A stretch of DNA of 64,000 bases from Pseudorhodobacter antarcticus (lineage in GTDB: Bacteria; Pseudomonadota; Alphaproteobacteria; Rhodobacterales; Rhodobacteraceae). Under the pieces are notes generated by a model. The model searched no databases and was not told the origin of the DNA. It was given only the letters and a program-made list of their open reading frames with translations. Shown piece after piece: positions 1 to 25,250 of this stretch. How positions within the stretch are numbered: the first letter of the stretch is position 1; each line of letters opens with the position of its first letter. Made by a program: the position numbers and the translations under genes. The stretch spans positions 92 to 64,091 of the forward strand of contig CAMAYO010000003.1 of assembly GCA_945862465.1 (NCBI GenBank), given 5' to 3'.

Positions 1-988
1 TCACCTCACGCGGAATAGTGGTGCCCATGGCCAGCTGCGACCCGCCTTCGTACAAAAACCCAAACAGGATCGAGGCGACCACGATGCCAAAGGGATGGTT
101 GCGCCCCATCAAGGCCACGGCGATGCCGATAAACCCCGCCCCCTCGACAGAGTTCAGCACCAAGCGGTGTGCTGCCCCCTGCACGGCGTTCACCGCCATC
201 AACCCCGAAATCCCGCCCGACAGCAGCAGGGCGTAGATCGTGATCTTGACCGGATCAATTCCGGCATAGAGGGCCGCCTTTTCCTGCTTGCCAAAAGCGC
301 GAAGGGCATAGCCGAGCCGCGTGTGCCAGAGCAGGGTCCAAACCCCGATCGCCAAGGCGATGGCGATCAGAAAGGTGATATTGGCCGGATTTTTGCTGGA
401 AAACGGGATCCCCACCAGCCCCAGAATATCGCCCAGTTTGGGCAGGTTGTAAGCTTTGTCGAAACGGGCTGAGGCTGGGTCCATGCTGCCCATGGGCCGC
501 AGCAGGTTGACGAGCACATAGTTCATCAAGGCATAGGCGATGAAGTTGAACATCATCGTGGTAATTACGATATGGCTGCCGCGCTTGGCTTGCAGCCAAG
601 CAGGCAAAAAGCCCCAAGCCGCGCCAAACGCCGCCCCTGCCGCCAGCGAGCCTATCAGTGCCAGCGACCAATGCGGCCAAGGGATCAGCAAGCACGACAG
701 CGCCACGCCCAAACCGCCCAAGGTCGCCTGCCCTTCGCCGCCGATGTTGAACAGGCTGGCCTGAAAAGCAATCGACACGGCAAGGCCCGTGAAGATGAAG
801 TTCGTCGCGTAATAAAGCGTATAGCCCAAGCCATTGGTTGACCCGAAGGCCCCGTCAATCATGATCCAAATCGCGTGCAGTGGGCTTTGGCCGATGGCCG
901 CAATCAAGATGCCGCAAAAGACAAAGGCGATGATCAGGCAGATCAGCGGCACCAAAACCACATCGGCCCAGCGGGGTAACTTGTCCAT
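1..988 (-). CDS. ABC transporter permease (nucleoside/sugar BMP-type system), runs off the left edge
   Basis: Hand translation from ATG at 988 gives MDKLPRWADVVLVPLICLII...FNIGGEGQA, a hydrophobic permease with the FNIGGEGQ motif. It starts 1 nt after the ATPase stop. Not in the ORF track because it is truncated. Confidence 0.9.
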   Translation of the reverse strand, partial: MDKLPRWADVVLVPLICLIIAFVFCGILIAAIGQSPLHAIWIMIDGAFGSTNGLGYTLYYATNFIFTGLAVSIAFQASLFNIGGEGQATLGGLGVALSCLLIPWPHWSLALIGSLAAGAAFGAAWGFLPAWLQAKRGSHIVITTMMFNFIAYALMNYVLVNLLRPMGSMDPASARFDKAYNLPKLGDILGLVGIPFSSKNPANITFLIAIALAIGVWTLLWHTRLGYALRAFGKQEKAALYAGIDPVKITIYALLLSGGISGLMAVNAVQGAAHRLVLNSVEGAGFIGIAVALMGRNHPFGIVVASILFGFLYEGGSQLAMGTTIPREV

Positions 989-21982: not shown

Positions 21983-23013
21983 TCGGGGTTTTACTCTTGC
22001 TGGCGGGGCTATGGGCCTTGGGGGCTGCCTTTGGCACACCGCGCCCGTCGCGCCTGATTGCTATGGCGGCAGTTTGGGCTTTGGCGGGCGTGGGTTTGGC
22101 CGCACTGCCTGCAGGCCAAACTCTGCGACGCATTCTGGGCGATGATTTGCGGGTTTGGGCGGCAGTGACGATTCTAGCCGTTTTGGGCCTTGGCTATGCT
22201 TGGCTGCTGACCCGTCTAAAGGCGCGGGCTATGACCGATCAGCCCAAGACAGCCCCCAGCGCCTTTACGCCTGCCGAACTTGACCGCTACGCCCGCCACA
22301 TCCTGCTGCGCGAAATCGGCGGGCCGGGGCAAAAGGCGCTGAAGAACGCGCGGGTTTTGGTGATTGGGGCGGGGGGGCTTGGCTCTCCGGCTCTGTTGTA
22401 TCTGGCGGCGGCGGGGGTGGGGTGCATCGGGATTATGGACGCCGATGTGGTCGATGCCAGCAATTTGCAGCGCCAGATTATTCATAAAGACAAGGGCATT
22501 GGCCTTGCCAAAGTGCAATCGGCGCGCGAGGCGATTTTGGCGCTGAACCCCTATGTCACCGTGCGCCCCTATCAGCGCCGGTTTGATGCCGACACGGCTT
22601 CCGTTCTGCAAGACTATGATCTGGTGCTGGATGGGTCGGATAACTTTGACACGCGCTATCTGGTCAACAAGATGGCCGCACAGGCGGGCATTCCCGTGAT
22701 TTCCGCTGCGATCACCCAGTGGGAGGGGCAGATTTCGCTGTATGACCCCGCCCACGGAACGCCCTGCTACGAATGCATCTTCCCCGACCGCCCTGCGCCC
22801 GGCCTAGTGCCCACCTGTGCCGAAGCGGGGGTGGCCGCCCCCTTGCCCGGCGTGATCGGCGCAATGATGGCGATGGAGGCCGTGAAGCACATCACCCAAG
22901 CGGGCCTAACCCTGCGCGGGCGCTTGTTGATCCATGATGCGCTTTATGCCGAAACGCGGGTGATCGAGATCACCCGACGTTCAGATTGCCCTGTGTGCGG
23001 CATGGCGCATTAA
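21979..23013 (+). CDS. HesA/MoeB/ThiF adenylyltransferase with N-terminal membrane segments
   Basis: [33 protein letters not shown] and CPVC Zn motifs; about three hydrophobic helices at the N-terminus. Confidence 0.9.
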
Positions 23014-23017
23014 GCCC

Positions 23018-23812
23018 TTAGCCGAACTTGTAACTGGACGCCGTCACCCCGCCAAAGACATTGGCGTCGTGATAAACCAACTTGGCCGTGTCATCCTCTG
23101 CCGCGCCCAAGGCGGCAAACAGGGGCACAAGGTGGTCTTCTTGCGCGTGGCAGGTGCGGGCATAGGGCGCGCTTTCCCAATCAAGCAGCGCTTGGGTGCG
23201 CGCCTTGCCTGTTTTGGCCATCGTATCGGCCAACCAAGCGTCAAACGCGGCAGAGGGCGCCTTGGCCCCCGGCCCGAACAGGCGCAGGTTGTGATAGCTT
23301 AGGCCCGACCCCACGATCAACACGCCCTCATCGCGCAAGGGTGCCAAGGCACGGCCTAGCGCGAAATGGGCGGCGGGGTTGTAGCCGTGCTGCAGCGAGA
23401 CTTGGTAAATTGGCACCTCGGCCTTGGGATACATGACATAGGCGGGGGCAAAGGTGCCGTGGTCAAAGCCGCGTTTGGCATCCAAAGCGACCGGCAGGCC
23501 CGCCGCTTTGATAAGCTCCGCCGTGCGCTGGGCAATCTGCGGCGCGCCGGGGGCGGGGTAGATTATCTTATAGGTTTCAGGCGGAAAGCCACCGTAATCA
23601 TAGACCATGCCGGGGGTGGGGGCGGTCATCACGGTGAAACTGTCCTCCTCCCAATGGCCAGACACCATGCAGATGGCCTTGGGCACTTCGCCAATCTCAG
23701 CGGGCATCCGTGCGAGCGAAACTTCAAGGCTGGCCAGCATCTGGCGCATATTGGGCAGCCAAGGCCAAGGCCCGCCGCCGTGCGAGATAAAATAGGTGGG
23801 AAGTCGGGCCAT
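23018..23812 (-). CDS. DODA/YgiD-type extradiol ring-cleavage dioxygenase
   Basis: FISHGGGP, SGHWE, YDYGGFP, RGFDHG, GSGLSYHNL, EDHLVPL. Confidence 0.9.
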   Translation of the reverse strand: MARLPTYFISHGGGPWPWLPNMRQMLASLEVSLARMPAEIGEVPKAICMVSGHWEEDSFTVMTAPTPGMVYDYGGFPPETYKIIYPAPGAPQIAQRTAELIKAAGLPVALDAKRGFDHGTFAPAYVMYPKAEVPIYQVSLQHGYNPAAHFALGRALAPLRDEGVLIVGSGLSYHNLRLFGPGAKAPSAAFDAWLADTMAKTGKARTQALLDWESAPYARTCHAQEDHLVPLFAALGAAEDDTAKLVYHDANVFGGVTASSYKFG

Positions 23813-23837
23813 GGGGCCTCCTTTCAAACTGTTCAAT

Positions 23838-23866
23838 AAATGGCCCTGCGCATGGGCGCGCGCAAG
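23838..23866 (-). promoter_or_regulatory. Candidate RpoH-type promoter of the dioxygenase
   Basis: CTTG-N18-GCCATTT about 25 nt upstream of the start. Confidence 0.3.
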
Positions 23867-23928
23867 GTGCTGGGGCGCAACCTATCTGTGCAATGATGGA
23901 GGGTATCGTGGTTCGAAAGGCGGTCATC

Positions 23929-23957
23929 TTGACATCTTCTGCCCTTGCGCTTACTAA
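23929..23957 (+). promoter_or_regulatory. Putative sigma70 promoter of the small ORF
   Basis: TTGACA-N17-TACTAA with a perfect -35. Confidence 0.5.
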
Positions 23958-23992
23958 AGTGTACACTTTGGGGTAGCACGAAAGGGCAATCG

Positions 23993-24169
23993 ATGATGAT
24001 TCAAGTAGCAATTGTTGGGCCGGATAGTCAGCTTGTGGAGATGGTCGCAGAACTCCATGGTGAAGGAGACCTTGCTTTATTGGTGAAAAATGCGACTTTG
24101 GAGTATCGCAAAATGTACCCAGATGCGGTACCATTTGATTACACAATCAAAGTGTCTCGTGCCAGCTAG
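23993..24169 (+). CDS. Small hypothetical protein (58 aa) in a low-GC patch
   Basis: MMIQVAIVGPDSQ...YTIKVSRAS, GAAAGGG SD, upstream promoter, not overlapped by another gene. Confidence 0.6.
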   Translation: MMIQVAIVGPDSQLVEMVAELHGEGDLALLVKNATLEYRKMYPDAVPFDYTIKVSRAS

Positions 24170-24293
24170 GACTAGCAGATGCAGGCGTTCATCTGGCTTG
24201 TTGGATCGTGACGTCCTGCATCGACGAATGTTCTTAGGCTGAATAGTCAGCCATACGCTCCATTAAGGAGCGGTTGCTATGTGCTATTACATT

Positions 24294-24332
24294 CAACTGG
24301 CATGCCTTTGATCGCATGCCAGTTGTTTTTTT
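24294..24332 (+). terminator. Strong Rho-independent terminator
   Basis: Perfect 12-bp stem CAACTGGCATGC/GCATGCCAGTTG, 8-nt loop, then T7. Confidence 0.88.
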
Positions 24333-24464
24333 GATTGACCGACCTGCATCCCCTTGCGCCAGACTTTGCGGTGCAACCTGTCTGTGCAGCAGCGCTCAGG
24401 GGTTGCCCCCGCCCCTGCGATGCGGCCATAGTCGGCCATCGCTTCGTGACAGGGAGATCACAGA

Positions 24465-25250
24465 ATGAAATTAGCACCCCTTTTGGCTGGCCTTGCGCTT
24501 GCCTCTTTCGCCACCGTGGCTTTGGCTGACGGCTTGCCCGATATGGCGGGTAAGGAAATTACCATCGTCACCGAAAACGCCTATCCGCCGCTGCAGTTCT
24601 TGGACAAAGACGGCGCTGCCATCGGCTGGGAATATGACGCCATCGCTGAAATTGCCAAGCGTTTGAACATGACCGTGAAATACGAGACCATTTCATGGGA
24701 TGCGATGATCCCTGCCGTGTCGGAAGGCCAGTTTGACATGGGCATGACAGGCATCACGATGACAGATGAACGCAAAGCCATGGTCGACTTTTCGGATGCC
24801 TATATGCGCTCGCAAAGCGTGATGATGGCGCGTTCGGATGACAGCCGCTTTACCGATGCCAAATCCTTTGGCGCTGACGAGGCGCTGCGGATCGGCGCGC
24901 AGGCGGGCACCACGCCGTTCTATACAGCGGTGTATGAGGTGCTAGACGGCAACGAATCCAACCCGCGCATCAAGCTGTTTGAAACCTTTGGCACCAGTGT
25001 TGAAGCGCTGAAGGCGGGCGATGTCGACACGGTTTTGACCGATATGACGGCAGGGCAGGGCTATGTCGCTGCATCCGAAGGCAAGCTGAAGCTGGTGGGA
25101 GAGCCTTTGGGCACCGAAGATTTCGGCTTTATCTTCCCCAAAGGGTCGGAATTGGCAGCCCCCATGAATGCCGCGATTGCGGCGCTTAAGGCGGACGGCA
25201 CTTTGGACGCCCTGAACAAGAAGTGGTTTCTTGACTACAAGATGAACTGA
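24465..25250 (+). CDS. Polar amino-acid ABC transporter substrate-binding protein
   Basis: Signal peptide, [40 protein letters not shown]. Confidence 0.92.

Follow-up and report, generated by a model that had tools for sequence, protein, structure and literature searches.

A structured RNA stretch upstream of an amino-acid ABC operon in Pseudorhodobacter antarcticus lies on a 496-bp inserted cassette and probably forms the 3' end of a small acquired gene unit

What does the tightly folded stretch at positions 24170-24332, a short distance upstream of an amino-acid ABC transporter operon of Pseudorhodobacter antarcticus, do for its host? We addressed this within a window of 64,000 nucleotides, the whole stretch of DNA that was analysed. 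The initial annotation saw here competing hairpins, a ten-codon open reading frame (mini-ORF) with a masked Shine-Dalgarno (SD) sequence and a strong terminator, and it proposed a translation-coupled attenuator or riboswitch-like leader of the ABC genes, a 3'-derived small RNA (sRNA) or a type I toxin-antitoxin (TA)-like locus. When read directly from the window sequence, every element that it listed is present at the position given (Table 1), and the binding-protein gene starts 133 nt past the T-run. The interpretation placed on these elements is partly supported.

Table 1. Coordinates of the insertion, its contents and its neighbours. Positions are those of the window except in the rows for homologue loci, where the locus is named.
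Feature	Position	Strand	Basis or remark
LigB-family dioxygenase gene, left neighbour	23018..23812	-	divergent; annotation
Left 16-bp direct repeat copy (GCAACCTATCTGTGCA)	23877..23892		insertion junction
Insertion body, low GC	23893..24372	+	496 bp with one repeat copy; single-copy in genome
Promoter-like site TTGACA-N17-TACTAA	23929..23957	+	read from sequence; below consensus-scan threshold; inferred
26-nt box with perfect palindrome AAAGTGTACACTTT (23956-69)	23951..23976	+	overlaps -10 hexamer and likely transcription start
58-aa gene (P0003)	23993..24169	+	member of unannotated 57-aa protein family
Long branched hairpin	24177..24223	+	-20.1 kcal/mol; pair probabilities 0.98-1.0; includes pairing of GATGCAGG (24178-85) with CCTGCATC (24215-22)
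Alternative small hairpin CAGATG/CATCTG	24176..24195		arms 24176-81 and 24190-95
Hairpin GGCUGA-AUAG-UCAGCC	24237..24252	+	-8.0 kcal/mol; arms 24237-42 and 24247-52
Hairpin CGCUCC-AUUAA-GGAGCG	24256..24272	+	-9.4 kcal/mol; arms 24256-61 and 24267-72; covers SD TAAGGAG (24264-70), whose GGAG is in the 3' arm
Mini-ORF MCYYIQLACL*	24279..24311	+	ten codons from ATG 24279
Intrinsic terminator	24294..24332	+	-20.4 kcal/mol; 12-bp perfect stem (24294-24305 with 24314-24325), 8-nt loop, T7 run (24326-32)
Right 16-bp direct repeat copy (GCAACCTGTCTGTGCA)	24373..24388		insertion junction
Native ABC promoter TTGCCC (24403-08), N18, CATAGT (24427-32)	24403..24464	+	conservation
ABC leader CATCGCTTCGTGAC-AGGGAG	within 24403..24464	+	downstream of insertion; conservation
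SBP_bac_3 solute-binding protein (SBP) gene	24465..25250	+	first gene of ABC operon
Partner gene at distant homologue loci	L037:2076-2258, L038:980-1243, L062:241-339; L059:993-1040		L059 a stub
Upstream motif at distant homologue loci	L037:1828-1855, L059:733-760, L039:3914-3940, L038 about 740-770		

The stretch lies near the 3' end of an insertion. By blastn, window positions 22900-23892 and 24367-24700 align to one continuous stretch of the corresponding locus of the closest relative, G009, whose SBP is 97% identical, and two further relatives, G007 and G005, also align continuously over the insertion site. Junction alignment placed a single GCAACCTGTCTGTGCA copy at the empty site of all three genomes. 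Because these relatives carry one 16-bp copy where the window has two copies flanking extra DNA, the insertion measures 496 bp (23893-24388, one repeat included); the two copies differ at one A/G position, in the left copy. GC content dips to 0.47 between about 23900 and 24300 (0.47-0.51 over the body) against approximately 0.61-0.66 in the flanks. Blastn of the insert gave no match among 60 relatives, 32 of them same-genus genomes, and none in a plasmid collection; its sole match in a phage collection was 42 nt long with E = 0.1, and a search for related loci in genome, viral and metagenome collections ended with no confirmed relative. The proposal of a leader belonging to the ABC genes is not supported by this position: the whole stretch sits on DNA that was not found in the 32 same-genus genomes, and the three closest relatives examined keep the site uninterrupted.

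The insertion resembles a small integrative element or att island of the kind moved by tyrosine recombinases in that an att-like core repeat stands in direct orientation at both junctions, a clean empty site with an intact single core is found in relatives, and the same site is occupied in two diverged lineages (see below). Within the 16-bp repeat, imperfect 7-bp inverted arms surround a 7-bp spacer, an arrangement that in our reading resembles a tyrosine-recombinase core. It differs from such elements in its size of only 480 bp, in having no recombinase of its own, the 58-aa ORF being all that the insert holds, and in that neither an excised form nor a second target was seen. No tyrosine recombinase gene is present in the cassette or on the contig, and eight are found elsewhere in the genome. 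The contigs of four runs, which are a weak test, contained no excised-circle junction. The repeat core has no further occurrence in the genome, and only one insertion site was found in the genome, relatives and contigs examined. A MITE or other non-autonomous transposon was considered and rejected, as the insert ends carry no terminal inverted repeats and the insert is single-copy in the genome. The surrounding genes are of housekeeping type (ThiF, LigB, ABC transporter, peptidase M3), with no prophage around.

The ABC operon has regulatory DNA of its own. When the 170 nt preceding the binding-protein gene were aligned for approximately 17 genomes of the genus, three blocks stood out as conserved: cTTGCCCcc and CATAGT separated by about 18 nt, the leader CATCGCTTCGTGAC, and AGGGAG just 5' of the ATG. 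All three lie downstream of the insertion and of the cassette terminator, and from this we infer that the operon is served by the native promoter; the strong conservation of the leader CATCGCTTCGTGAC suggests that it is a regulatory site in its own right. The TTGACC at 24335-40, which the initial annotation had offered as a candidate promoter of the ABC genes, is not the conserved one: no acceptable -10 hexamer follows it at 16-18 nt, and its place is in the non-conserved right end of the insert. That annotation had also said what would undo its leader reading, and on conservation evidence two such findings are now in hand, a promoter belonging to the ABC genes themselves and a structure that is not conserved.

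The gene that the stretch follows is real. An exhaustive HMMER search of 1.84 billion representatives recovered approximately 10 full-length, 57-aa homologues of the 58-aa protein, aligning without gaps at 35-51% identity, while a word-based protein search found only the protein itself and a search of 400 genomes of the class for the family gave no matches. An AF2 model built with the homologue alignment has a pLDDT of 96.7 and a beta-beta-alpha-beta fold, and the protein is predicted to be acidic, soluble and globular. Searches of the family against Pfam, PHROG, PADLOC and PDB sequences were empty or insignificant, and fold searches of PDB and BFVD, together with the ESM Atlas, returned no significant match; likenesses to the Y-family polymerase little finger and to T4 Dmd had E > 0.7 and were set aside. 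The neighbourhoods of the homologues are varied and mostly of mobile or prophage type, with MazE/PemK, Imm8, P63C with SocA_Panacea, Sf6 terminase and DUF5131. The stretch is thus the 3' UTR of a genuine 58-aa gene, and to that extent, in its anatomy, the earlier notion of a 3'-derived RNA holds.

In three of the distant homologue loci a partner gene overlaps the stop of the 57-aa gene. Its product starts M[PL]KG..GEKRPA.VIG and has no Pfam match; the unannotated consensus runs on as M[PL]KG..GEKRPA.VIG.A..V.RIATGE... In one of the three loci the partner is only 32 aa long, and a fourth locus (L059) seems to us to hold a short, decayed stub. These loci suggest that the 57-aa gene and its partner form a two-gene module whose second member is frequently lost. 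In the window, tblastn found no partner-gene remnant above chance, and the idea that the structured stretch is itself a decayed copy of the partner gene (MPKGPxGEKRPADVIG...) was rejected because its matches were at chance level, the best in-frame one having E = 4.2. Four distant-homologue loci also share a motif, (G/A)TAGTGTCTCA-N3-TG(A/C)AA-T(T/C)T, approximately 75-90 nt before the ATG. It is better conserved than the proteins themselves, does not occur in that form in the window, and probably serves this family as a promoter or operator of its own. The 58-aa gene itself contains, on the minus strand, a terminator-like hairpin (24110-24091) with a 6-bp stem followed by TTTTTCACC.

At the other end of the cassette, the promoter-like site is overlapped by a 26-nt palindromic box that is identical at 24 of 26 positions to C20:14646-14671 of the same genome, upstream of a Y-family polymerase (dinB-like) gene. 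Across 33 genomes of the genus the box occurs only in the cassette, in this dinB-like upstream region and in G025. The palindrome common to the cassette promoter and the dinB-like upstream region can be written AAAGTGTA[C/A]ACTTT, and a repressor shared by the cassette and the dinB-like gene is possible. The first bases of the cassette (ATGATGG-AGGGTA) resemble the dinB-like start region, and the left 84 nt of the cassette may be a mosaic copied from a locus of the dinB-like type.

The dinB-like upstream region is an insertion hotspot. In the present genome (G000) it holds a low-GC island of about 2 kb (C20:12687-14645; L002/L044) with a C5 cytosine DNA methylase (PF00145), other cargo is found in G009 (L045) and G025 (L046), and G007 (L047) has only about 50-107 nt; the islands sit between TTGGGGTAGG and its inverted copy. 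We considered whether the box might be a mobile-element end common to the cassette and the DNA-methylase island, and rejected this because comparison of G007, G009 and G025 places the box as native to the dinB-like upstream region, beside the hotspot.

The RNA of the stretch is strongly structured. Its 171-nt fold has an energy of -71.4 kcal/mol, compared with -48.3 +/- 3.9 for shuffled sequences (z = -5.98), and none of 200 shuffles was as good; the excess persists without the terminator (z = -3.94 for the 129 nt upstream of it). Pair probabilities are close to 1 for the long hairpin, both short hairpins and the terminator, whose stem has 7 GC pairs of 12 and which has the GC-rich stem, short loop and U-run of a Rho-independent terminator. 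The alternative pairings in which the initial annotation saw a possible switch both exist in the sequence but are unbalanced: forcing the small alternative hairpin leaves the fold 11.6 kcal/mol worse than the best one, with an equilibrium probability of about 0, so there is no balanced switch.

In the fold of the stretch by itself, a multiloop is closed by an outer helix that vanishes once the whole predicted transcript is folded. In the predicted cassette mRNA (folded over 23964-24290), this helix is replaced by pairing of 24273-24286, the start region of the mini-ORF, with the 5' UTR, including the SD region of the 58-aa gene; a 5'-3' interaction in the predicted mRNA is therefore possible.

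This RNA belongs to no described family. The Rfam search that the initial annotation had called for, run over 23500-25000 with E up to 10, returned noise only: the best scores were 15.5 bits for rmf (gathering score 45) and 11.1 bits for isrG (gathering score 100), with E values of 2.9-8. ARAGORN found nothing. The exact pattern of the two short hairpins had no matches in the genome and metagenome contig collections, and no RNA homologue was found anywhere searched (the 60 relatives, plasmids, phages, and genome and metagenome contigs), which left no homologues in which to count compensatory changes. A structure kept with covariation before orthologous operons was likewise not found, the stretch having no counterpart in the 32 same-genus genomes.

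The mini-ORF starts from a sequence of good quality, TAAGGAG-N8-ATG (equivalently AGGAG-N9-ATG). Dinucleotide shuffling of the stretch produces the pattern AGGAG-N5-10-ATG in only 1.4% of cases, and the 2.9-Mb genome has just 341 such sites, both strands counted. As in an attenuator, a short ORF with an SD overlaps the regulatory helices. The other marks of an attenuator are missing from the locus: in place of a terminator and an antiterminator of similar stability, the only alternative noted is a 6-bp pairing, and the element does not lie between the operon promoter and the first gene, the conserved promoter being placed by conservation downstream of the terminator. The two Cys codons of the mini-ORF are not adjacent. 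The SD-ATG may be a vestige of the start of a lost downstream partner gene, or incidental; neither is comfortable, because an AGGAG-N9-ATG found in so few shuffles is of true-gene quality.

Population data, in the form of assembled contigs that carry no information on transcript ends, add variants of the locus. DNA contigs of two lake or freshwater runs (X1 and X3) contain joints skipping exactly 496 bases (23884 to 24381), which we read as empty sites in close relatives. Contigs with the insert were also found: one from X1 covers 24129-24347 without a difference, and one from X4 covers 23860-24010 with four. A further contig, of 221 nt at depth 3.6 from metatranscriptome library X24, matches 24223-24281 and then 24317-24477. 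This variant is without the 35 nt 24282-24316, that is, without the body of the mini-ORF and the 5' arm, the loop and the first 3 bases of the 3' arm of the terminator, and by our translation its mini-ORF would read MCQLFF*. Over the cassette it differs from the window at 1 of 122 positions (about 99% identical). The right piece has ten mismatches and one indel, all at or after 24380, within the right repeat and the native flank, and the native flank is approximately 90% identical to the window. With the cassette at about 99% and its flank at about 90%, a second lineage, separated from the first at roughly the species level, has the same cassette in the same position. Although this is a single low-depth contig, in which DNA carry-over or a reverse-transcription artefact at the hairpin is possible, the variant argues against a conserved, selected mini-ORF-and-terminator device, both parts being dispensable in that lineage. 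Its pattern points tentatively to a recent, site-specific transfer, though a recombination tract may by coincidence have ended within the repeat. With no conservation found, a place on DNA that arrived recently and a partial deletion in the other lineage carrying the cassette, this RNA does not amount to a new regulatory class.

We conclude that 24170-24332 is probably a structured 3' UTR ending in the Rho-independent terminator of a small, acquired, self-contained, moron-like unit. The 496-bp cassette, presumably acquired horizontally, has inserted between the LigB-type dioxygenase gene and the amino-acid ABC operon, in their divergent promoter region, with duplication of a 16-bp target. It consists, in order, of a promoter-like site with a palindromic operator-like box, the 58-aa gene, three hairpins and the 12-bp/U7 terminator. 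Transcription from the cassette promoter would pass through the 58-aa gene and end at the terminator to give an mRNA of about 370 nt; both the use of this promoter and the stop at 24326-32 are predicted. The terminator would insulate the ABC operon, whose native promoter and leader follow 70-130 nt further downstream, and the hairpins would most likely stabilise the 3' side of the short mRNA against 3' exonucleases. The SD-ATG of the mini-ORF may be left over from the start of a lost partner gene, or incidental. Counting against this explanation, the 129 nt that precede the terminator fold more strongly than an ordinary 3' UTR would need, and the cassette, placed in a chromosome with no prophage nearby, brings no recombinase that could account for its insertion.

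The 3' UTR might be processed into, or separately transcribed as, a stable trans-acting sRNA of approximately 24170-24332. In favour are the three stable hairpins, the U7 terminator and the excess of structure even without the terminator (z = -3.94). Hairpins leading up to a U-tailed terminator are a layout typical of sRNAs, and 3' UTR-derived sRNAs are a known class, for example in enterobacteria; the cassette shares with them a structured 3' UTR that ends in the mRNA's own U-tailed terminator. The metatranscriptome contig starts at 24223, just past the long hairpin, which is a weak point in favour since contigs carry no information on transcript ends. The cassette differs from this class in showing no sign of processing, no predicted internal promoter, no seed or target, no Rfam match and no conservation anywhere searched, and we consider such an sRNA unlikely. 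To the reading of the terminator as gated by translation we give a slightly smaller chance. In E. coli pyrBI attenuation the leader ORF runs through the terminator hairpin; here, too, codons 6-9 of the mini-ORF form the 5' arm of the terminator and its stop codon falls in the loop, so that a ribosome following closely would block the hairpin and cassette transcription would read into the ABC operon. How frequently it did so would depend on the hairpin that masks the SD and perhaps also on whether the 58-aa gene is being translated. An SD-ATG of a quality rare by chance, the placing of its GGAG in a stable hairpin, and the RNA-library contig of the terminator-less variant all speak for such gating; that contig continues from the cassette into the SBP gene, which makes transcripts that read through physically plausible. 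Unlike pyrBI, however, the element is not in the operon's native leader, because the conserved promoter of the operon comes after the terminator. It has no pause sites or regulatory codon runs, its separated Cys codons have no link to the transporter substrate, and folding revealed no rival antiterminator helix of similar strength. The cassette is moreover recent and not found in the closest relatives, it offers no homologues for covariation, and the sister lineage has lost most of the mini-ORF.

The hairpins might instead act as DNA, as arm-type or structured sites of an att-like region whose recombinase is supplied in trans; eight tyrosine recombinase genes are present elsewhere in the genome. 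The flanking repeat is laid out like a tyrosine-recombinase core, and in the second lineage divergence begins inside this repeat, beyond a cassette that is nearly identical. We regard this as improbable, however, in view of the single insertion site ever seen, the lack of a recombinase in the cassette or on the contig, the lack of terminal inverted repeats, and the distance of the hairpins from the repeat (100-200 bp), the strongest of them having a U-tail that fits an RNA terminator. Just as improbable in our judgement is a bolder combination, in which a recombinase-less, site-specific 496-bp mobile cassette spreading among freshwater alphaproteobacterial lineages carries both the small protein gene and a terminator gated by translation. 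Whether the ABC operon is insulated or taken over by the cassette's strong promoter would then depend on translation of the SD-masked mini-ORF, perhaps coupled to that of the 58-aa gene, and the terminator-less variant of the RNA library would be a "locked-on" form. Hardly credible is the type I TA-like locus, in which a small toxic peptide would be controlled by an antisense or structured RNA. The hallmark of such systems is a membrane-spanning toxin of approximately 20-60 aa with an antisense RNA that has its own promoter. The mini-ORF is small and hydrophobic with a sequestered SD, and the minus-strand hairpin within the 58-aa gene would suit an antisense RNA, but ten residues are too short to span a membrane, the 58-aa product is an acidic, soluble protein confidently modelled as globular, a promoter scan predicted no antisense promoter, and the mini-ORF is lost in the variant lineage.

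The structured 3' UTR and terminator of a moron-like unit, our preferred reading, has a counterpart among known genetic objects. Morons are autonomous promoter-gene-terminator units of deviant GC content that have been added to prophage genomes (PMC3594210). Like them, the cassette has a promoter-like site of its own (predicted from the sequence), its own strong terminator and a deviant composition, is present or absent between close relatives, and carries one small accessory gene whose homologues have neighbourhoods of prophage or mobile type. It differs from them in lying at a chromosomal intergenic site with no prophage around and no integrase on the contig, and also in its 16-bp direct repeat flanks and its unusually long, structured 3' UTR. 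Acquired mini-genes that are autonomous and bring their own terminator are an established kind of object. What is new here is in the details, namely the location in a chromosome, an att-like 16-bp repeat that comes with no recombinase, and a protein family that had not been annotated.

These results remove a false lead: what seemed a candidate for a new riboregulator of amino-acid transport turns out to be the end of a mini-cassette acquired not long ago. The interest of the locus lies elsewhere. It brings to light an unannotated family of 57-58-aa proteins with a very confidently predicted fold that occurs sporadically in mobile and prophage-type neighbourhoods, and a tiny cassette with att-like 16-bp repeats that is near-identical in two lineages whose flanks are approximately 10% apart, which hints at site-specific transfer without a recombinase on board. 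The two natural variants, one of which has the terminator while the other lacks it, offer a handle on how inserted promoters are insulated from, or captured by, the operons of their hosts.
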